Below, piece by piece: positions 17,948-54,695 of a stretch of DNA of 64,000 nucleotides. The notes below the pieces were generated by a model. That model had not been told where the DNA came from. It made no database searches and saw nothing but the letters and a program-made list of their open reading frames with translations. Source of the stretch: a virus; the IMG/VR virus record IMGVR_UViG_3300029286_002355, positions 122,120 to 186,119 of that record; one strand, written 5' to 3'. The number at the start of each line of letters is the position of its first letter. Position 1 is the stretch's first letter. The position numbers and the translations under genes are program-made.

Positions 17948-18832
17948 TTACTTTTGTGAATCTTGAGGGTCTTTCCCGTTAAACACAACATCGACCTTAT
18001 TTGTTATCTTATTAAACGGAGGCATTTCAATCTCTTTAATTTCGGTTCTTTCTACCATAAGATCGGGATTCTTCCTTGCCTCATGTTTGGGCGGAAGTTT
18101 ATCAAGTTCTTCCATGGTAAATTTTTTAGTCACGATTCTTCGTTGGACATAAGTTCCACGTTTGAAGAAGGCAGGGTAATCATTAAAGTTTACCCCTTTC
18201 TTAAATAACATCTCTTGTTTTTCAGATCCATTCTTGCAATACAGTTCCTTGTCAGAATAAAATTCGCTTGCCGCCATTGAAATGCTGTTCTTGGTAGCAT
18301 CCTGTTCTCTCCATAAAAGAGTATTACAGGCTTCTATTTGATTGGGAACCATCCATACCCTGCAATCAAAAACAGGCAACATCATGGCTTTTTGAATCCA
18401 AAGATTGTGATTATCTAGTTCCCCTTTACTATTATGTTTAAACTCCATCCTAGATTTCGATTCAAACAATCCACTTCTGATAAGGGTATTGAAGTATACT
18501 GAACACATGGATGCAAGTACCGATGTCATCTTTTGAATTCTTCCATCAAAAAATACTTGACTTTCAGAACTATCGCTATAAAAGATAAGAGATATTTCGT
18601 CAGACTGAGTATATCCAATTTTAGCATTGGTTTCTTCAACCATATACTTAGTTGTTTCTATCATCAGTCGAGAGAAAATTTCATCATAGGGTCTCCGCAT
18701 TCCTTCGGTAAAATGATGGAAACTTTTACCATCTAATCTTGCGCAAATGGGTAATAGGGGAATAAACCGCCTATCGGATTCCTGCCCTTCATATGACTTT
18801 ATTCTATCGCCTAGTGAATCTTTAGTCTTCAT
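17948..18832 (-). CDS. thg1: tRNA(His) guanylyltransferase / Thg1-like protein
   Basis: RLDGKSFHHFT, GYTQSDEISL, FDGRIQK, FDCRV, WREQDA..NS. Confidence 0.9.
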   Translation of the reverse strand: MKTKDSLGDRIKSYEGQESDRRFIPLLPICARLDGKSFHHFTEGMRRPYDEIFSRLMIETTKYMVEETNAKIGYTQSDEISLIFYSDSSESQVFFDGRIQKMTSVLASMCSVYFNTLIRSGLFESKSRMEFKHNSKGELDNHNLWIQKAMMLPVFDCRVWMVPNQIEACNTLLWREQDATKNSISMAASEFYSDKELYCKNGSEKQEMLFKKGVNFNDYPAFFKRGTYVQRRIVTKKFTMEELDKLPPKHEARKNPDLMVERTEIKEIEMPPFNKITNKVDVVFNGKDPQDSQK

Positions 18833-22357: not shown

Positions 22358-22728
22358 TGGTGGAAGCGAGGAGAGTTGAACTCCTGTCACGTATAATTTC
22401 AACCAAGTTTCTTTCACATGTTTAGTCTACTGTTTCTGAGACTGATTGCTCGGAGCCAAAATAGACTCACTCCGGACGGTTCCTTATACCTCAAGCATTT
22501 CGTCTTCCCGAAATTCCACAGAGCTAAGCTACTCTGTCCGCACTCTTGTGTCTTATGCTACTCAGGTTTACCAGAATTATCTTAACCCTTTCACAGGCCA
22601 CTATTAAGCAGCCATTGCCATTCTAGGAACAGCATTTAATTTTTTGTAATGGATATTTTAAGAGGCCAACCATCATCCTCTACATGCAACTGGATTTACG
22701 TTACCACGCTCGATACCGTAACGCTCCC
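22358..22728 (-). ncRNA. ssrA: tmRNA (one-piece, 371 nt), tag (A)AVPRMAMAA
   Basis: GGGAGCG/CGCUUCC-ACCA acceptor with G3.U70, T-arm GGAGUUCAACUCUCC, no anticodon arm; tag ORF GCT GTT CCT AGA ATG GCA ATG GCT GCT TAA at 22633-22604 after the UAAAU resume context. Confidence 0.93.
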
Positions 22729-25439: not shown

Positions 25440-26849
25440 ATCAACTACCCAGCGACTAAAGATCGCTGGGTTTGCATCTTCTGAAGACACAATTGGCTAG
25501 TTGATGGTAGCCTGCCCATAAAGTTCAGTCCACCATCAATAGGTATACCAAACGATACAGGGCGTTTTACTCCTTTGGCCTCTTTTATTTTGGAGTATTT
25601 GTTGGCAATATTTATTGATGCATTCCAATCTGCATCAAAAACCTTGCCATCTGAGGCATAATACCTGCATCCCCTTCTTTCTCCTTTCTCAATTCCTCTG
25701 TAGTCTAATTGAGACGTTAAATAGGGGTTAACCGTTACTACTCTTTTTCCATTGAGTAGTGCCTTGTAGGTCAATATTCTTTGTAGTTCAAAGAATGACA
25801 TTTGACTTAATCTATTTTTACTCGATTTGCCTTTCTTGTAGTTTTTCTTTCCTAGGTTATTTTTCTTTAAAGAGGATAAGTCTTCAAGAACTATAGTATT
25901 CATTTTAGTCTTTAGTATCTCGTTGACTAACTGGTAACTAGTGTTTTTGTTCTTGTTTTTCTCTTTTCGTTTTAGTTTCTTGAGCTTAGTTTTTGCAGAG
26001 TGAGATCTATTTATTTTAAGATTTGAGTTTAATTGTCTTTTTAGATATCTTAATTGTCTTTTTTGTTTTAGAAATTGCTTGTCAGAAATAGCAATACCTT
26101 CAGAAGTAGTTATGAGTCTTCTTTCTCCAAGATCTACTCCAAGATAACCGTTTTCAATATGTACTGGTTCTGGAACTGAAAAGGATACTGCCAGCCAGAA
26201 CACGCTATCCTTAAAGAAAATCAGTGGATCGCAAAGAGAATAGGTTTTTAAGAGTTTAGAGAATTTAGGATATGGTTTAAAATCGCATACAATTCTCTTT
26301 CCGGTGGTTGTTAATTTAATTTGATTGTTATCAAGAAAGGTATAGATTCGCTTGTCTAACCTAAGAGATAGGTTAATTTGCTTGGCAGATTCCGTTAATT
26401 TAGATCTTTGTTTATTAGATTGTATAGTTTTGTAGGTGGCATAAACAGAGTCTTTGGCTCGTATTATAACCTGAGAAGGACAATCGGGGAACAACTTTCT
26501 GCACTGATGATAGTTCTTGTCGTGAAGCAGTTTCTTATCTAATTTCTTGGCTTTAAAGGCATATTCTGACATATAATTCCATATTTTCTGATGCTCAAGA
26601 AGAGTATTATAGAGCAGATCAAACTCTTCTTTACTCTTTGGAACAAGCTTAATATTATATGTTATAACTGAGTTCATAATTATTACTTCTATAATTATTT
26701 ACTCTTTCCTTCTTATTTCTTTGATTATTTTCTTGCATTCAGGAATTAAAGATGTATAATAGTAGAAAGTTAAAGAAAGGAGATGAGTGGATATAGTAAC
26801 TCGCTTACCTCCCCCACACTAAAGATGTCGGGGTTTCTGCTCGCATTAA
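25440..26849 (-). mobile_element. IS200/IS605-family element (tnpB only, non-autonomous)
   Basis: Left end: TCAT target, then TTAATGCGAGCAGAAA-CCCCGAC hairpin (guide GAAA predicts TCxT). Right end: guide CAAA + CCCAGCGA/TCGCTGGG hairpin ending TGAT (predicts TGxT). Confidence 0.85.
25445..26677 (-). CDS. tnpB: TnpB RNA-guided endonuclease
   Basis: RuvC triad GVDLG, VLEDL, DADWNAS; V.VNP..TSQ; zinc-finger cysteines missing. Confidence 0.9.
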   Translation of the reverse strand: MNSVITYNIKLVPKSKEEFDLLYNTLLEHQKIWNYMSEYAFKAKKLDKKLLHDKNYHQCRKLFPDCPSQVIIRAKDSVYATYKTIQSNKQRSKLTESAKQINLSLRLDKRIYTFLDNNQIKLTTTGKRIVCDFKPYPKFSKLLKTYSLCDPLIFFKDSVFWLAVSFSVPEPVHIENGYLGVDLGERRLITTSEGIAISDKQFLKQKRQLRYLKRQLNSNLKINRSHSAKTKLKKLKRKEKNKNKNTSYQLVNEILKTKMNTIVLEDLSSLKKNNLGKKNYKKGKSSKNRLSQMSFFELQRILTYKALLNGKRVVTVNPYLTSQLDYRGIEKGERRGCRYYASDGKVFDADWNASINIANKYSKIKEAKGVKRPVSFGIPIDGGLNFMGRLPSTSQLCLQKMQTQRSLVAG

Positions 26850-28433: not shown

Positions 28434-29048
28434 TTATAATTTTGTTGGTTTAAGTGGATAAAATGCCTTGGGAAGAGAATCATTATATAGAAAGTCAATG
28501 TACTTAGCAGGAACATCATCAACCAGCCATACACCATTATTTGAAAGAAAGAAATCATATCCTTCTTTTATCATAGCTTCTGTATCAATACGAAGAACAT
28601 GGGGACTTCCATGCCTAGAACCAACCTTTACCGCCGTATCATGATCCTTAGAGAGATGAACATGATTACGTTGCCTCTTATCTAAGCCATTAATTCTAAT
28701 AGATGGAATGAATTGCTTCGCCGTACCATGAAAGAGAAACTTGGGCGGTATATTAGAATCTAACTCTAAATCTACATCTACCGAATGACCTTGACAAGCC
28801 CTAATCTGCCACCCATCTTCGCTATACTCAAAACGTTTCTTATCGTTATCAGCAACAACTTCATCAAGAATAGCCTTGGTAATCGGTTCAAACCCTTCCG
28901 CTTTTTGAAAAGTATTACTTCGGTCAATTAGTTCTTTCACATCAACCCAACCATTCTTGTCCAAGGCAATCCCAATCGTTTCGGGTTTATGCCTTAGAAC
29001 CATGGCTAGAAACTTACTAACCCCAACCAATTCTTTTTTCAACGCCAT
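28434..29048 (-). CDS. kptA: RNA 2'-phosphotransferase (Tpt1/KptA)
   Basis: LRHKP, KKRF, IRACQGHS, LFHGT, RNHVHLS, GSRHG, NGVWL. Confidence 0.93.
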   Translation of the reverse strand: MALKKELVGVSKFLAMVLRHKPETIGIALDKNGWVDVKELIDRSNTFQKAEGFEPITKAILDEVVADNDKKRFEYSEDGWQIRACQGHSVDVDLELDSNIPPKFLFHGTAKQFIPSIRINGLDKRQRNHVHLSKDHDTAVKVGSRHGSPHVLRIDTEAMIKEGYDFFLSNNGVWLVDDVPAKYIDFLYNDSLPKAFYPLKPTKL

Positions 29049-29111
29049 ATTAACTCCTTTTCAACATTGTAAGACAACTTAATTATATTTCAACCATTTT
29101 CTTTGGAAATT

Positions 29112-30086
29112 TTATCGTTCGAAAAACTCGTTAGCATTTTGATAAATGAATCCGCATCGATTACTAAAGGTTTTATCGCTTGTAGAATCACCAACATAAA
29201 AGCATTTATTAGGATTTAATTTATATTTTTCAACTAAATAGACACCTAATCCGCTTAGTGGCTTACGGCAATAACATCTAATGGGAAAAGAATGATGTGG
29301 ACAATATACATAAGCAATATCAAATCCGATAAGCATATTAGTTTGATTGAAGCAAGCCTTAGCCTGAGTCTCGCTAAGATCCCCCTTCTCAATACCACTC
29401 TGATTGGATACGCCTAAAAGAAAATAACCCTCATAAACATACTTTTGGAGAATTTTCTTTGTATTGGGTAATATTTCAATATCTTCTGGTTTTAAGGGAT
29501 ACTTGCCACCACTCTTTGTTTTTCTAAGGGTTCCATCATAGTCTAAAATAACAGCACGATTATCATAACCCGAAGGAAGAGGCTTCCTAACAAAATCAAT
29601 TTCTATTATGTCAGAAAATCCTTCATCCATGGTAGGCTCTTGGAAGGCTTTCTTGTAGGCGTAAAGGGCTATAGAAGGAATATTACAGGGATCTTTATCT
29701 AACTTGCTACCATTAGGCCCTAAAATATCATTTAATGGGAATAGAGGCTTTGCGGGATCTAAGACATAGCGTTTCAAAATTCGATAAGCGGCATTATATT
29801 GTGCATCTTCTATTTTAGTTGTTACCCAAATGCATAATACTTTAAATCCATACTTTTTTGCTATATCAATTACACACTTCCTAGATTCTTTGGTTCCATA
29901 GGTATTATCAAGAACAAATTTTTCCTTGCCGCTATTTATTTGACTTATTAGTTTTTCGTTGAGCTTTTCAAGATTGCAGCCCATCTCGTCCCGATTCAGC
30001 CTGACATAGCCTTTATCGGTGTATGATTTTACGTGGGATGATTTACCTGCACCCTGTATCCCACATATGATTACAATTTCTTTCAT
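29112..30086 (-). CDS. Polynucleotide 5'-kinase/3'-phosphatase (PNKP-like)
   Basis: GIQGAGKS P-loop, VLDNT...R, HAD-IIIA DYDGTL, SNQSG, CRKP, VGD...D. Confidence 0.85.
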   Translation of the reverse strand: MKEIVIICGIQGAGKSSHVKSYTDKGYVRLNRDEMGCNLEKLNEKLISQINSGKEKFVLDNTYGTKESRKCVIDIAKKYGFKVLCIWVTTKIEDAQYNAAYRILKRYVLDPAKPLFPLNDILGPNGSKLDKDPCNIPSIALYAYKKAFQEPTMDEGFSDIIEIDFVRKPLPSGYDNRAVILDYDGTLRKTKSGGKYPLKPEDIEILPNTKKILQKYVYEGYFLLGVSNQSGIEKGDLSETQAKACFNQTNMLIGFDIAYVYCPHHSFPIRCYCRKPLSGLGVYLVEKYKLNPNKCFYVGDSTSDKTFSNRCGFIYQNANEFFER

Positions 30087-31142: not shown

Positions 31143-31367
31143 TTATTCTGTTAGTCTCAAAAGATGGGGACGAATACCGTAGCAGCTTTGCATATCGGGT
31201 TCTCCTTCGGGATGGACAATAGCAAAAATTTCTTTGGTTTCGTAACGGACATTAACCCATTTCAAAACTACTCTTTTGTTATTAGTAGAATCAATATAGA
31301 TTTGTCCCGGATGCAACTGAACCAGATCATCAACTTCAACTTCTGTTTTTTGTATAGTTCTTTTCAT
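31143..31367 (-). CDS. Hypothetical small protein (start MKRTIQ at 31367)
   Basis: GAGGT RBS; the longer start in the ORF track overlaps the RNase P RNA 3' end. Confidence 0.55.
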   Translation of the reverse strand: MKRTIQKTEVEVDDLVQLHPGQIYIDSTNNKRVVLKWVNVRYETKEIFAIVHPEGEPDMQSCYGIRPHLLRLTE

Positions 31368-31388
31368 AGTTACCTCAATAAGTGAAAG

Positions 31389-31611
31389 CGAATACCTCAT
31401 AACCCGAATTCTGTTTCTCTTCTATCATTTGACTCACTTTCGTGGCAGGTTCTTATCTCCTGCTGCACCAACCCGACCATCAACGTATAGCTAACCTACT
31501 ACGGTCTATTTGGCTTGCTCCTTCATCGGTTATAACAGGTTTCCCCTCCCGGCTTAAGCTAAGGAGTTCGGAGTTTCCTCTGCTTTATGGCAGCGATAGA
31601 TCGAATATCCG
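31389..31611 (-). ncRNA. rnpB: RNase P RNA, minimal type-A-like, specificity domain nearly absent (~223 nt)
   Basis: GAGGAAACUCCGAA (CR-I) pairs with AACAGAAUUCGGGUUAU (CR-V); P2 UCUAUC/GAUAGA, P3 CUGC/GCAG, P5 CUCC/GGAG, GGAGCAAGCCAAAUAG, L15 GGGUU, P6 UAGCU/AGCUA, P18 GCAGG/CCUGC. Confidence 0.85.
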
Positions 31612-31614
31612 TTT

Positions 31615-31908
31615 TCATCCTTTATTAACTATAACCCATTTCTCAATTATTTCAAGTTCTTTTTTTGCCCCAATGTATTTTTTAATAGCTTCTATTACTT
31701 CAGTTGGAACGGCTGTTTCCCATATTTTTACCGCTTTTGTTCTTTTATAACGATCTTTATCGGTTTCAAAACAGTGTATTAAATTACCATCAAGGTTAAT
31801 AGCTACTTTAAGTTTTGGAATATAATATTCTTCAATTTGTCTTGTAAATCCATGAGCACGATCCAATATGCTATCACATATTTTTATTTTATACATTTCT
31901 GCTTTCAT
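31615..31908 (-). CDS. Hypothetical protein
   Basis: ATGA coupling. Confidence 0.55.
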   Translation of the reverse strand: MKAEMYKIKICDSILDRAHGFTRQIEEYYIPKLKVAINLDGNLIHCFETDKDRYKRTKAVKIWETAVPTEVIEAIKKYIGAKKELEIIEKWVIVNKG

Positions 31909-38349: not shown

Positions 38350-38603
38350 ATAACCTTTATGGTGGGTAGTGCTTGTTTAAACTCATAAGGATATCCCCAT
38401 GTACCATCTAAAAGAGAAAAATAAACATTTTCGACCCCACTTAATACCGAAATTTTACAACTAGAAACACTCATCCATTCATAATCAGTTTCTTTATTTT
38501 TATTAATTTGGATTGATTTAATTACTTTATTAATATGGATGGATTTAACCACACATTTTTTCCCACTACATCGAATAATCAGTTCATCTCCAACTTTTAT
38601 CAT
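38340..38603 (-). CDS. Small SH3/KOW-like protein with C-terminal PTIKVI
   Basis: MIKVGDEL; ends LPTIKVICK. Confidence 0.6.
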   Translation of the reverse strand: MIKVGDELIIRCSGKKCVVKSIHINKVIKSIQINKNKETDYEWMSVSSCKISVLSGVENVYFSLLDGTWGYPYEFKQALPTIKVICK

Positions 38604-38797
38604 CGCCGTATAACCTTTATGGGAAAAACTTCTACCAAATCCCTTAAAAGAAATGGTACATCAGAACTTCCGCAATCATAACGACAAAAAGCTATTTCCA
38701 CTTCTGGCTCTAAACTAACAAAAGACTTTACAGTTAGAAGTTTTGCATCTTTTTCTTTGCTAGTTGTACATCTAACTATTGATCCAATTTGAATCAT
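38600..38797 (-). CDS. Small SH3/KOW-like protein with C-terminal PIKVI
   Basis: MIQIGSIV; ends FPIKVIRR. Confidence 0.6.
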   Translation of the reverse strand: MIQIGSIVRCTTSKEKDAKLLTVKSFVSLEPEVEIAFCRYDCGSSDVPFLLRDLVEVFPIKVIRR

Positions 38798-38994
38798 TGT
38801 CGTATCGCTTTAATGGGAAATAAAATATCTTCGACTAAATCTCCGTAATACATTCTTATTTTCACATCAATGTGGGTTCTGTTATGACAAATTGCAATGG
38901 TTTTATCGTGATCTAAACATTCAAATATTAATGGAAAATGTTTCTTCTCCTTAATGTCCCATCTAGGAATTACTTCAGAACCTTTTTGTATCAT
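38794..38994 (-). CDS. Small SH3/KOW-like protein with C-terminal PIKAI
   Basis: MIQKGSEV; ends FPIKAIRQ. Confidence 0.6.
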   Translation of the reverse strand: MIQKGSEVIPRWDIKEKKHFPLIFECLDHDKTIAICHNRTHIDVKIRMYYGDLVEDILFPIKAIRQ

Positions 38995-39183
38995 TGCCGT
39001 ATTACCTTTATGGGAAATGGGATAACCTCTATCATGGTTTCAAAATAAACTGAATAATGTAATCCCGCCTTGTTATCAGAAACACAATAAGCATATCCCT
39101 TTTCCTAAACAATCCATTTCTTCTACAATGAAAAAATTATCTCTGCACGTTTTGAGCTTTACTATAGAACCTACCCTTATCAT
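38991..39183 (-). pseudogene. Frameshifted member of the PIKVI array
   Basis: MIRVGSIVKLK...LGK then one extra G in AAAAGGG (39097-39103); the shifted frame continues GYAYC...PFPIKVIRQ*, and both ends are coupled (TAATG, ATGA). Confidence 0.65.
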
Positions 39184-39500
39184 TACCCAATTCCGAAGTT
39201 GATCATGCTCTTAAATTGCTCTGGTTTTTCTACTCTTTCCCATTTTCCGCTTTCATCAAATTCGTCATCTTTTTGATTTCCAGATTTCCACTTGTACCAA
39301 ACCTGATCGTTCTCATGGCATAATGAATGTATCCCCTCATATAATTTCTCAATAACTATATAATTATAGAAACATTCATGCATATCACATCGGTTTTCTA
39401 GAACTGCCTTTTCCGATTTTTCAAAACTATCAAACCATCCAAAGCATCTCTTTTGGAGTGGATCGTCCGTGTTCATTGCCGTGATTGTATATATATTCAT
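39183..39500 (-). CDS. Conserved hypothetical phage protein
   Basis: RCFGWF...A...V..N..DMHE..Y.Y.VIE...EG...W.W pattern. Confidence 0.65.
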   Translation of the reverse strand: MNIYTITAMNTDDPLQKRCFGWFDSFEKSEKAVLENRCDMHECFYNYIVIEKLYEGIHSLCHENDQVWYKWKSGNQKDDEFDESGKWERVEKPEQFKSMINFGIG

Positions 39501-39644
39501 GTCTTATTATAACTAGAAAGGAAATAAAATCAAGAGAATAATGGCGAGAAAAATTACTATAGTTTTCTAATAACATATAGTAATTTGAGCAAGAATAACA
39601 CTAATCCAACAATCAATATTATTCGCACCATAATATTAGTAATA

Positions 39645-40078
39645 CTATTGCACTTGCCCAAACCACCAATTGTTCGTACTAGCACCAACTGTAGTAGAAG
39701 CATTACCCGATAAATAATATACCTCGTAGAAATCATTCGTGCTGGTATTAACAGTTTCAAGATAATTCCATGTAACAGTAAATGGGAAATCTCCATTATT
39801 AGGTCTGTACGAATAAACTGTGGTGTAATTTGTTCCGTTCTTGTACAAATACAGAGCGTGTACCGTATTGGCCTGCACCGTATCTACTCGTATGCCACCC
39901 ATAAATTCAATAACCTTACCTGTAGTTCTTGGATACCATCTTGAGTTAGTAGCAGTATAAGTACTACCACCAGAAGCTGCCAATACTACATTAGTAAGAT
40001 TAAATTTAGCCGTGCCAGTTGTTAATGCATAATTTGCCTGTAGACCCGCTTTGAACCGAATAGGAGTACCAATAGTAG
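39645..40078 (-). pseudogene. Orphan 3' fragment of a beta-rich tail-fibre/C1q-like gene abutting the IS right end
   Basis: Frame is open from the IS junction (TIGTPIRFKAGLQANYALTTGTAKFNLTNVV...NNWWFGQVQ*); Thr/Asn/Gly-rich; no RBS/ATG and no 5' half beyond the left end. Confidence 0.6.
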
Positions 40079-40090
40079 GTGAATGCTCCC

Positions 40091-41320
40091 CTAGCCTAAA
40101 GGCGTAGGGGCTTCTATAGGAATATCTCTATCCCTAAGAGAATCCATTCCGATTCTCAAAATATTCTTACTAGCATTGAAATCTCTATCCATAATCAATC
40201 CACACCAACTACATTCGTGGATTCTATCAGATAGTTCCTTACTAGTTAATTTACCACAACTTGAACACATCTTAGTAGTATTCTTTGGATTTACGAACAC
40301 AATCTTAGTACCAGCATCTTCCGCTTTGTACTCTAATTGTTGAACGAATTGATTCCAAGCAACGTCCTGTATACTTTTATGTGTTCTTGTTGCCTTTATT
40401 TCTTTACCGTTTACTGAAATTGTTTCCTGTTCTTGCATCTTCTTGATATTTAACTTTTCTAAGCAAATAATACCATATTGACTGACTAGCTTTTTTGATA
40501 ATTTATGAGTGAAATCTGCTCGTTGATTTTGTATTTTTTCATGGATTTTACCAACAATCATTCTCTGTTTATTTCGTTCTGGAGTTTTCTTTTCTAATTT
40601 GGAAAATTTTCTTTGTGCTTTCGCTAATTTCTTTTCGCCATCTTTAAAGAATCGTTCTCTTTTTACTTTTTCACCATTAGAAAGAACTGCAAACTCCTTT
40701 AGTCCTAAATCAATGCCAACAGCGGGATTGGCATTGATTCTTTTTACATCTGCCAAAACGCAAGAAAATATTGCAAACCATTTACCACTTTTTGTTCTTT
40801 GTATTGTTAATCTCTTTACCTGTTCTGGAAGCGTTCTATGTGATTTTATTTTAACACAACCTATTTTTGACAATTTCAATCTTGTTTCATTTTGGGTTAT
40901 TGAAAATCCTGACTGTGGAAATGTGAACGAATCATATCTTCCATATTGTTTAAAACGTGGAAATCCTGCTTTCTCGCCTTTCTCCTTACATCTACGGAAA
41001 AACGATTTAAAAGCTAAATCAACTCTTTCAGAAACGTTTTGGATTACCTGAGAATGGATATTGTTTAATGATTCTCGTTCAAGCTTCCAATCTTTAATTA
41101 AATTATTGGTAGCATATTTATTAAGTGTTTTCTGTTCAGATTCATAAGTTTTAATTCTGGTGTCAAGAATCTTATTGTATACAAAACGACATTCCTCAAG
41201 TGTTGCAAGTAGTTCTCGCTCTTGCTTTTTCGTAGGATATAATCTGAATTTGTAGTTCTTTTTCATATAGTTTTTGTATAATATATTTATGCTAACTCTT
41301 ATATTATACAACAAAAGCAT
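40091..41320 (-). CDS. tnpB: TnpB RNA-guided endonuclease (start probably MKKNYKF at 41266)
   Basis: YKFRLYPT, GIDLG, CLEKL, TTKMCSSCG, ECSWCG..MDRDFNASKNI; RuvC triad intact. Confidence 0.93.
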   Translation of the reverse strand: MLLLYNIRVSINILYKNYMKKNYKFRLYPTKKQERELLATLEECRFVYNKILDTRIKTYESEQKTLNKYATNNLIKDWKLERESLNNIHSQVIQNVSERVDLAFKSFFRRCKEKGEKAGFPRFKQYGRYDSFTFPQSGFSITQNETRLKLSKIGCVKIKSHRTLPEQVKRLTIQRTKSGKWFAIFSCVLADVKRINANPAVGIDLGLKEFAVLSNGEKVKRERFFKDGEKKLAKAQRKFSKLEKKTPERNKQRMIVGKIHEKIQNQRADFTHKLSKKLVSQYGIICLEKLNIKKMQEQETISVNGKEIKATRTHKSIQDVAWNQFVQQLEYKAEDAGTKIVFVNPKNTTKMCSSCGKLTSKELSDRIHECSWCGLIMDRDFNASKNILRIGMDSLRDRDIPIEAPTPLG

Positions 41321-45335: not shown

Positions 45336-45409
45336 TGGAGCACGTGGGGAGAATTGAACTCCCGTCTTAAGATTGGAAATCTTAGGTAATGCCGTTATAC
45401 GACACGTGC
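45336..45409 (-). tRNA. tRNA-Gly(UCC)
   Basis: GCACGUG/CACGUGC-UCCA, anticodon loop UU-UCC-AA, T-loop UUCAAUU. Confidence 0.92.
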
Positions 45410-54447: not shown

Positions 54448-54536
54448 TGGTGCGGCATATGAGATTCGAACTCATACGGTCTGTTTGGAAGACAGAAATG
54501 CTAGGCTTTCGCCGTTCCGTTAAACATCAATGCCGC
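54448..54536 (-). tRNA. tRNA-Gly(UCC), atypical: hairpin insertion in D-loop, A73
   Basis: GCGGCAU/AUGCCGC-ACCA, CU-UCC-AA, UUCGAAU; D-loop contains GGC-GAAA-GCC. Confidence 0.8.
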
Positions 54537-54620: not shown

Positions 54621-54695
54621 TGGTAGGCGGTGAGGGTAACGCTCCCCCTTCACGTGCTTATAAGACACGGGTAATTACTTTTATACGAACCGCCC
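54621..54695 (-). tRNA. tRNA-Ile(UAU)
   Basis: GGGCGGU/ACCGCCU-ACCA, CU-UAU-AA; non-canonical T-loop AGCGUUA. Confidence 0.82.

Follow-up and report, generated by a model that had tools for sequence, protein, structure and literature searches.

A minimal class A-derived RNase P RNA homologue with a short stub in place of its specificity domain on a virus-classified genome

Does a non-coding gap of 247 nt on a virus-classified genome hold an RNase P RNA, and if so, could this RNA act on tRNAs without the domain that reads their elbow? Two ribozymes are universal; RNase P RNA, which trims new tRNAs, is one of them. The full-text literature that we searched describes it in cells and organelles, not in viruses, and we found no account there of an RNase P RNA encoded by a virus. 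The gap separates two minus-strand ORFs (31615-31908 and 31143-31367) within a stretch of 64,000 nucleotides, here called the window, which represents positions 122,120 to 186,119 of the 186,119-bp IMG/VR record IMGVR_UViG_3300029286_002355. The first-pass annotation, made without database searches, had proposed a minimal RNase P RNA of ~223 nt at 31389-31611. This claim held. The Rfam model of bacterial RNase P class A (RF00010), run with E-value reporting on a 401-nt stretch (31300-31700), aligned to 31612..31384 over model positions 1-367 with 50.1 bits and an E-value of 1.2e-14, which puts a minimal RNase P RNA of ~224-229 nt on the minus strand at 31384-31612. The covariance-model search had been named beforehand as a test that could refute the proposal, and it came out positive. 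When the whole record was searched, this RNA was the single match to RF00010 (E 1.3e-15).

The match is not due to chance and satisfies the criterion of a statistically significant full-length alignment to RF00010. It fails the gathering criterion of that family (100 bits), of which it reaches half. The shortfall follows from the deletion of the specificity domain (S-domain), and given a score below the curated cut-off the RNA is missed by routine annotation: at gathering thresholds Rfam returned only a tmRNA and five tRNAs for the window. Single-sequence folding was dropped as evidence, being uninformative either way, as the thermodynamic fold is unexceptional and no better than that of shuffled sequences (z = -0.6). 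The support for the RNA comes from the covariance model and the comparison with relatives, not from the thermodynamic fold.

The catalytic domain (C-domain) is complete in outline. The first-pass annotation had listed P1 to P6, P15 to P17, CR-I, CR-IV, CR-V, the GGU loop and a CAC-GAAA-GUG hairpin as landmarks, and all of these held; in the structure drawn by hand 60 of 60 pairs are standard. The features are given below, with RNA position p equal to 31613 minus the window coordinate; the L numbers denote loci of relatives.

31604-31611, minus strand (RNA 2-9): 5' strand of P1, pairing with 31389-31396 (CGGAUAUU/GGUAUUCG)
31595-31600, minus strand (RNA 13-18): 5' strand of P2, pairing with 31421-31426 (RNA 187-192) as (U)CUAUC/GAUAG(A), 5-6 bp
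31581-31592, minus strand (RNA 21-32): P3, a hairpin with as few as 3-4 bp
31567-31580, minus strand: CR-I and the 5' strand of P4, GAGGAAAC-U-CCGAA with a bulged U
31563-31566, minus strand: 5' strand of P5, CUCC, pairing with GGAG at 31518-31521
31557-31561, minus strand (RNA 52-56): 5' strand of the P6 pseudoknot, UAGCU, pairing with AGCUA at 31488-31492 (RNA 121-125) inside the P17 loop
31522-31555, minus strand: stub of 34 nt replacing the S-domain, with a P7-like stem of 3 bp, a conserved GGGAG, a GGAAA-loop hairpin and a 7-nt 3' internal loop
31467-31514, minus strand: P15-P16-P17 module, with J15/16 AAAUA and J16/15 GGGUU
31445-31463, minus strand: hairpin A at the position of P18, GCAGG/CCUGC with a 9-nt loop, common to L169 and L056
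31435-31444, minus strand: hairpin B, CAC-GAAA-GUG with a GNRA tetraloop; L169 has CAGC-GCAA-GCUG there
31427-31434, minus strand: CR-IV in J18-2, AGUCAAAU
31399-31416, minus strand: CR-V, consisting of J2/4 AAACAGAA and the P4 3' strand UUCGGGUU, then AU
31389-31396, minus strand (RNA 217-224): 3' strand of P1

CR-I of the window RNA reads GAGGAAACUCCGAAC; outside the covarying positions, 12 of 12 relatives have the same letters there, and this is also true of the ACAGAA of J2/4. A P4 pseudoknot with a bulged U between CR-I (GAGGAAA) and CR-V (ACAGAA...) is a criterion that the RNA meets: AAC-[U]-CCGAA (A38 A39 C40, bulged U41, C42 C43 G44 A45 A46) pairs with UUCGG-GUU (U205-G209 and G210-U212). 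Compared to the bacterial consensus AAG-[U]-CCGGG/CCCGG-CUU, three pairs differ in both partners and the bulged U is retained, which bears out the compensatory P4 partner proposed earlier. P15 (GCC/GGU) is joined to P5 by a J5/15 linker of 3 nt (CAA), and is followed by a P16 of 6 bp and a P17 of 3 bp. In bacterial enzymes the GGU of L15 / J16-15 pairs with the 3'-CCA of the tRNA. This criterion is met as well, with the partner of the CCA end at 31471-31473 within the GGGUU of J16/15 (RNA 139-143), and the GGU is retained in 10-11 of 12 relatives. The place of P18, the GNRA loop of which docks in P8, is taken by two hairpins, one of them with a GAAA loop, and there is no P8 to receive that loop. 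The CR-IV consensus in J18/2 is AGNNNNAU; AGUCAAAU fits this consensus, and its letters 3 and 4 depart from the family majority (AGAUA/GAU).

The specificity domain is where the RNA departs from the bacterial plan. Around 140 S-domain positions of RF00010 (blocks of 15, 15 and 110) are swapped for around 37 nt (8, 10 and 19). The segment between the two P5 strands, which holds the 5' strand of P6 and the elements of the stub, is only 41 nt, and neither CR-II nor CR-III was found in the window RNA. The criterion of an S-domain with CR-II/CR-III, the P10-P12 core that reads the T-loop/D-loop elbow, is thus not met. What is met is the provisional criterion for a phage mini RNase P class, a C-domain core with an S-domain stub of at most 100 nt. 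The earlier claim that nearly all of the S-domain is absent was correct, as the stub lacks CR-II/III; the ~35 nt that had been placed between the P5 strands together with a GGAAA hairpin held in kind, with a counted length of 41 nt.

Relatives were gathered by exact CR-I/CR-V pattern scans of IMG/VR and JGI metagenome contigs, not by an exhaustive covariance search, and these scans yielded many RNase P RNAs on viral contigs. They were compared with a covariance model built from the window RNA and the nested part of its hand-drawn structure (47 pairs, P4 and P6 excluded). Inter-P5 lengths and scores against this window model are as follows.

Window RNA: inter-P5 segment 41 nt
L169: 41 nt; 88 bits
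L168: 41 nt; 78 bits
L167: 46 nt; 50 bits
L165: 61 nt; 64 bits
L164: 62 nt; 34 bits
L161: 65 nt; 41.5 bits
L016: 73 nt; 38 bits (L016/L159)
L162: 83 nt; 47 bits; retains CR-II/III-like motifs
L166: 98 nt; 28 bits; CR-II-like motif only, CR-III pattern not found
L128: 150 nt; 25 bits; has an S-domain
L056: 33 bits
L005: 27.7 bits; partial and misaligned, excluded from the core-letter counts

The inter-P5 lengths form a graded series of S-domain loss, with the window RNA at the extreme end. The stub follows one plan in the window RNA, L169 and L168: GCUUAA, the P7-like stem (100% paired in the relatives), GGGAG, and then a hairpin with a GGAAA, UAAC or GAAA cap. The two-hairpin arrangement is shared with L169, where it reads GCC-GAAA-GGC followed by CAGC-GCAA-GCUG. 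As a side observation, viral contigs, some of which measure 100-463 kb, bear RNase P RNAs that span all stages of S-domain reduction (L162:676-884, L166:4-294, L128:1060-1363, L024, L064, L017 and L081). Some of these RNAs retain only the CR-II/III core, and the one of L166 scored highest against class B (41 bits).

RF00010 recovered members of the family independently of the window model, with 76 bits for L168, 72 for phage A3Wally, 69 for L165 and 57 for L169, all below the cut-off of 100, which hides them from routine annotation. In the 13-sequence alignment (A2), 94.9% of the pair cells are standard pairs, as compared to 35-43% when the 3' partners were slid by 1-3 columns. Changes on both sides were seen in 46 of the 60 pairs, and none of 500 shuffles reached any of these measures. 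Covariation among the relatives was seen in every helix, P4 and P6 among them. Per helix, P1 was 94% paired with double changes in 8 of 8 pairs, P2 98.6% with double changes in 6 of 6, and P5 100%. Since the nested helices guided the alignment, their pairing counts are biased toward the structure. The covariation of P4 and P6 constitutes independent support because both were left out of the model: though absent from it, P4 was 96% paired with double changes in 4 of 8 pairs, and P6 85% paired with double changes in 4 of 5. The unpaired core letters GAGGAAA, CAA, AG....AU and ACAGAA were invariant in 12 of 12 relatives and are all present in the window RNA. We consider it very likely that the window RNA is truly homologous to RNase P RNA and is under selection.

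Close variants of the window gene that could show purifying selection within the lineage were not found, neither by blastn against the GenBank phages nor among contigs of the sequencing runs; the contigs from four such runs were identical and held no informative variants. A blastn search of the RNA, with and without flanks, gave no match in 50,697 GenBank phage records, nor did the L162-type RNA match the GenBank phage records. An exact-pattern scan of IMG/VR with the CR-I variant of the window RNA itself gained only L128, which bears an S-domain.

To which class does the RNA belong? The proposal that it derives from bacterial type A held, on the basis of the best Rfam family (RF00010), a P2 of 5-6 bp, the CAA linker and the GGU in L15. 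With bacterial class A (E. coli M1 RNA, rnpB) it shares the C-domain plan (P1-P5, P15-P17, the P4/P6 pseudoknots and CR-I/IV/V), the bulged U in P4, the CAA linker, AAAUA and the L15 GGU. It differs in its length of 229 nt instead of ~350-400 nt, in the stub that stands for P8-P14 and CR-II/III, in the 3-4 bp P3, in the two hairpins at the place of P18, and in its location on a virus-classified genome without rnpA. That cells can rely on a natural RNase P RNA lacking an S-domain is known from archaeal type T (PMC3579882); these RNAs likewise have a normal catalytic domain, miss most of the specificity domain and escape the standard Rfam model (PMC3579882). However, the C-domain of type T is archaeal: its P2 measures 3 bp, its P5/P15 linker 2 nt, and its P15 is shortened. 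The protein partners are archaeal, too (PMC3579882). The window RNA does not meet the type T criteria of a 3-bp P2, a 2-nt linker and an archaeal C-domain, having a P2 of 5-6 bp, the CAA linker and a bacterial GGU loop. Considering that P2, linker and best family are all bacterial, the likeness to type T is therefore convergent and does not imply membership. The engineered C-domain-only RNAs, like the E. coli 'CP RPR' (PMC5839562), are bacterial type A catalytic domains without S-domain as well. When isolated, the C-domain of the E. coli RNA still cleaves its substrates, though less efficiently (PMC5839562). These RNAs are laboratory deletions, whereas the window RNA is natural and has its own stub and extra hairpins, which possibly compensate for lost inter-domain contacts. 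A natural bacterial-type RNA without S-domain represents a ready-made minimal ribozyme, with which tRNA recognition by the C-domain and RnpA can be tested.

The genomic setting of the relatives connects the family to tRNAs. In the 11 checked loci longer than ~1 kb, tRNA genes lie near the RNA on the same strand, and in L165, L168, L161, L164, L056 and L160 the RNA ends only 0-2 nt from the next tRNA. The L164-type shares 91-99.5% identity with sequence of three cultured Microbacterium phages, A3Wally, Zooman and Big4 (~192-195 kb). In the complete genome of A3Wally (MZ150783.1; locus L189) the mini RNase P RNA, located at 93852-94072 (RF00010 72 bits), exactly fills an unannotated gap between tRNA genes 162 and 163. 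The relatives sit in same-strand tRNA arrays and often directly abut the following tRNA, which ties the family to tRNA processing. The unannotated gene of A3Wally is a ready experimental system in a cultured phage, which makes a bench test possible.

The window copy does not meet the same-strand tRNA-array criterion: the nearest tRNA (45336-45409) is 13.7 kb away, and the distance to the tmRNA (22358-22728) is 8.7 kb. Its surroundings consist of the following features.

31628-31655, minus strand: sigma-70-like promoter candidate, TTGAAA, 16-nt spacer, TATAGT, with 10 of 12 consensus matches
31615-31908, minus strand: upstream ORF of 97 aa without a known family, the last codons of which contain the promoter-like site
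31143-31367, minus strand: downstream ORF of 74 aa without a known family, 17 nt past the RNA, with a GAGGT ribosome-binding site located 7-12 nt past the RNA
28434-30086, minus strand: Tpt1/KptA RNA 2'-phosphotransferase and polynucleotide kinase-phosphatase (Pnkp), 1.3 kb downstream of the RNA (PF01885, 2e-50; PF08645 and AAA_33)

The promoter-like site ends ~16 nt before P1, with a predicted start ~8-10 nt before P1. It is a consensus match only, and 10 such sites occur in the region where 6.3 are expected. No terminator was found after the RNA. Neither Pfam nor PHROG assigns a family to the neighboring small ORFs, and none of these is strikingly basic, so that they offer no candidate for a phage protein cofactor. 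Compared to the phage mini RNase P RNAs in tRNA arrays (L165, L168, L169, L161, L164 and A3Wally), the window RNA has the same core and shares the 41-nt stub of L169/L168 and the two hairpins of L169; it differs in being a solitary gene flanked by small ORFs, preceded by a promoter-like site and neighbored by Tpt1 and Pnkp. The window copy thereby adds a second genomic setting to the family, a stand-alone gene beside tRNA-repair genes, with a stub among the shortest.

The RNA shares the record with a supply and repair kit for tRNAs, comprising tRNAs, the tmRNA, Thg1-like, Tpt1, Pnkp, RtcB and RNA ligases. The gene for the Thg1-like guanylyltransferase lies in the window at 17948-18832; RtcB, the RNA ligases and a nucleotidyltransferase are found elsewhere in the record, and the record loci G000:C1:27020-28150 and 38366-39652 belong to the kit. 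As an observation in its own right, the means for tRNA repair and maturation are densely gathered in the record: Thg1-like, Tpt1, Pnkp, RNA ligase, RtcB, nucleotidyltransferase, tmRNA and tRNAs. A related phage contig, L154, has a Pnkp that is 59% identical and a tmRNA in a syntenic neighborhood, and no RNase P RNA was found on it at the matching spot or anywhere in the 59.7 kb searched. The gene is therefore dispensable or mobile; the synteny between the window and L154 is too scrambled for a call of gain or loss.

These data bear on the possibility that the RNA is a decaying relic, a captured and truncated copy of a host or phage rnpB without present function. In favor of this explanation, the RNA is a singleton without near-identical variants or close relatives in the GenBank phages, lies outside a tRNA array, is missing from L154 and has two unusual letters in CR-IV. 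Against it, none of the 60 designed pairs is broken, the RNA has retained each of the core letters that never vary in the family, and the compensation within P4 is exact. Moreover, the RNA fills an otherwise tight gap between genes behind a promoter-like site, and both the architecture of the stub and its 41-nt inter-P5 length are common to L169 and L168. We therefore regard a relic as very improbable.

That the RNA is carried by a phage, as had been claimed, rests on the IMG/VR classification and gene content; it is likely and has not been shown. IMG/VR lists the record as a linear virus with a CheckV completeness estimate of 82%, and the source DNA occurs in lake-water metagenomes; no RNA dataset was listed among the sequencing runs that contain it. 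The genes lie on one coding strand and include a UvsX-like recombinase, DnaE, RecJ, LigA, many HNH and LAGLIDADG endonucleases, TnpB and the RNA repair genes, a content that is typical of jumbo phages. The alternative is a non-viral carrier, i.e. another large element or a cellular fragment, in which case the RNA would be the reduced RNase P RNA of that organism itself. This is supported by the absence of any match to terminase, HK97 capsid or sheath in the 186-kb record and of any structural PHROG among the ~40 large ORFs. A T4-type capsid (Gp23) was not matched in the record either, but the Gp23 control was negative everywhere, which makes this result uninformative. The virion module possibly lies beyond the contig ends or is too divergent for detection. 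Arguing against a non-viral carrier are the classification of the record as viral by IMG/VR and CheckV at 82% completeness, the jumbo-phage-like content with few tRNAs, a tmRNA, a single-strand gene order and no rnpA, and the presence of the same RNA class in complete genomes of cultured Microbacterium phages. We consider a non-viral carrier highly doubtful. An attempt to infer the host via TnpB failed, as the closest cellular relatives were only ~44% identical (Chloroflexales MAGs), and the topoisomerase-like protein gave no lineage signal. The window holds two such TnpB genes (IS605 OrfB / Cas12f-like), at 25445-26677 and 40091-41320 on the minus strand.

What could the RNA do? The first-pass annotation had noted that rnpA is lacking in the window, which held and could be extended: the 186-kb record as a whole, an incomplete genome, contains no rnpA (PF00825), nor do the records of five relatives, all incomplete genomes. 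As the host is unknown, too, the protein partner is an assumption, and the idea that host RnpA is borrowed remains an inference, just like catalysis. Substrates are at hand. The window encodes six firm tRNAs, and the CCA end is encoded by five of these and by the tmRNA; the leaders of three Gly tRNAs end in UUUU. The encoded CCA and such leaders both suit a bacterial-type enzyme that retains the GGU; judged by sequence, these transcripts are ordinary substrates of bacterial-type RNase P. The claim that the RNA serves atypical tRNAs is only weakly supported, considering that a non-canonical elbow occurs in one of the six firm tRNAs, tRNA-Ile(UAU).

We favor, with a probability of around 0.55-0.6, an active and elbow-independent class A-derived RNase P RNA that uses host RnpA; catalysis, protein partner and benefit to the phage are all inferred. 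P1-P5 and P15-P17 together with the P4 and P6 pseudoknots would build a normal active site, and the L15 GGU would pair with the 3'-CCA that the element encodes in its tRNAs and tmRNA. Together with host RnpA (inferred, as the element encodes none), the RNA would cleave the 5' leaders off pre-tRNAs. With the 34-nt stub instead of an elbow-reading S-domain, recognition is predicted to proceed via the acceptor stem, the CCA end and the leader, and the GNRA-like loops of the stub and hairpin B would probably brace the C-domain. In this way the RNA may add or replace RNase P capacity during infection. The reading as an active RNase P is based on the complete covarying core, the retained GGU, the placement of the family in tRNA transcripts, the activity of C-domain-only RNAs (PMC5839562) and the precedent of type T (PMC3579882); the promoter-like site, the encoded CCA and the UUUU of the Gly leaders point the same way. 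Points against it are the CR-IV letters that deviate from the majority, a P3 of only 3-4 bp, the distance of 13.7 kb to a tRNA, the absence from L154, the lack of close variants and the missing rnpA.

A rival to this reading is a decoy or re-director, in which the RNA binds host RnpA via its intact C-domain, diverts the protein, and damps or re-aims the processing of host tRNA/mRNA. In line with this, the record lacks rnpA, so that any function must depend on the protein of the host; CR-IV, CR-V and the P15 region, which form the protein-binding side of the C-domain, are retained; and C-domain-only RNAs are poorer catalysts (PMC5839562). A decoy, however, has no need for the CCA-pairing GGU, the bulged U in P4, the AAAUA of J15/16 or P6, all of which are kept and are conserved or covary in the family. 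Likewise, the location of the relatives flush within tRNA arrays fits an enzyme that acts on those transcripts. We consider the decoy unlikely and retain the active enzyme as the preferred reading. A bolder version of the active enzyme, which we regard as possible rather than probable, is that large phages carry an elbow-blind RNase P that takes over host RnpA or needs very little protein, and that matures the phage tRNAs, the odd tRNA-Ile(UAU) included, whatever the state of the host enzyme. Here it would have left the tRNA array and become a solitary gene of the tRNA repair and supply kit, which would act against anticodon-nuclease defences of the host.

Such an RNA would add 5'-end processing to the translation steps that large phages bring along. 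A parallel in function is found in the Theta (HDV-like) ribozymes by phage tRNA genes (PMC10879173), which are also phage-borne ribozymes linked to the maturation of phage tRNAs. They have an unrelated fold, are self-cleaving and concern the other tRNA end, whereas RNase P is a trans-acting enzyme that generates 5' ends.

A few minor observations concern the tRNAs and tmRNA of the window. The tRNA-Ile(UAU) gene (54624-54695, minus strand), located between two tRNA-Ala genes, encodes CCA and has a T loop AGCGUUA (no UUC) and a D loop without GG; it was missed by ARAGORN and by Rfam with default filters, and reached 38.4 bits with lax filters. A weak seventh tRNA-like match (54451-54515, minus strand; 24 bits at a cut-off of 29) lies just downstream of a tRNA-Ala whose gene does not encode CCA. 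The tmRNA (minus strand) carries the tag AVPRMAMAA and encodes CCA.
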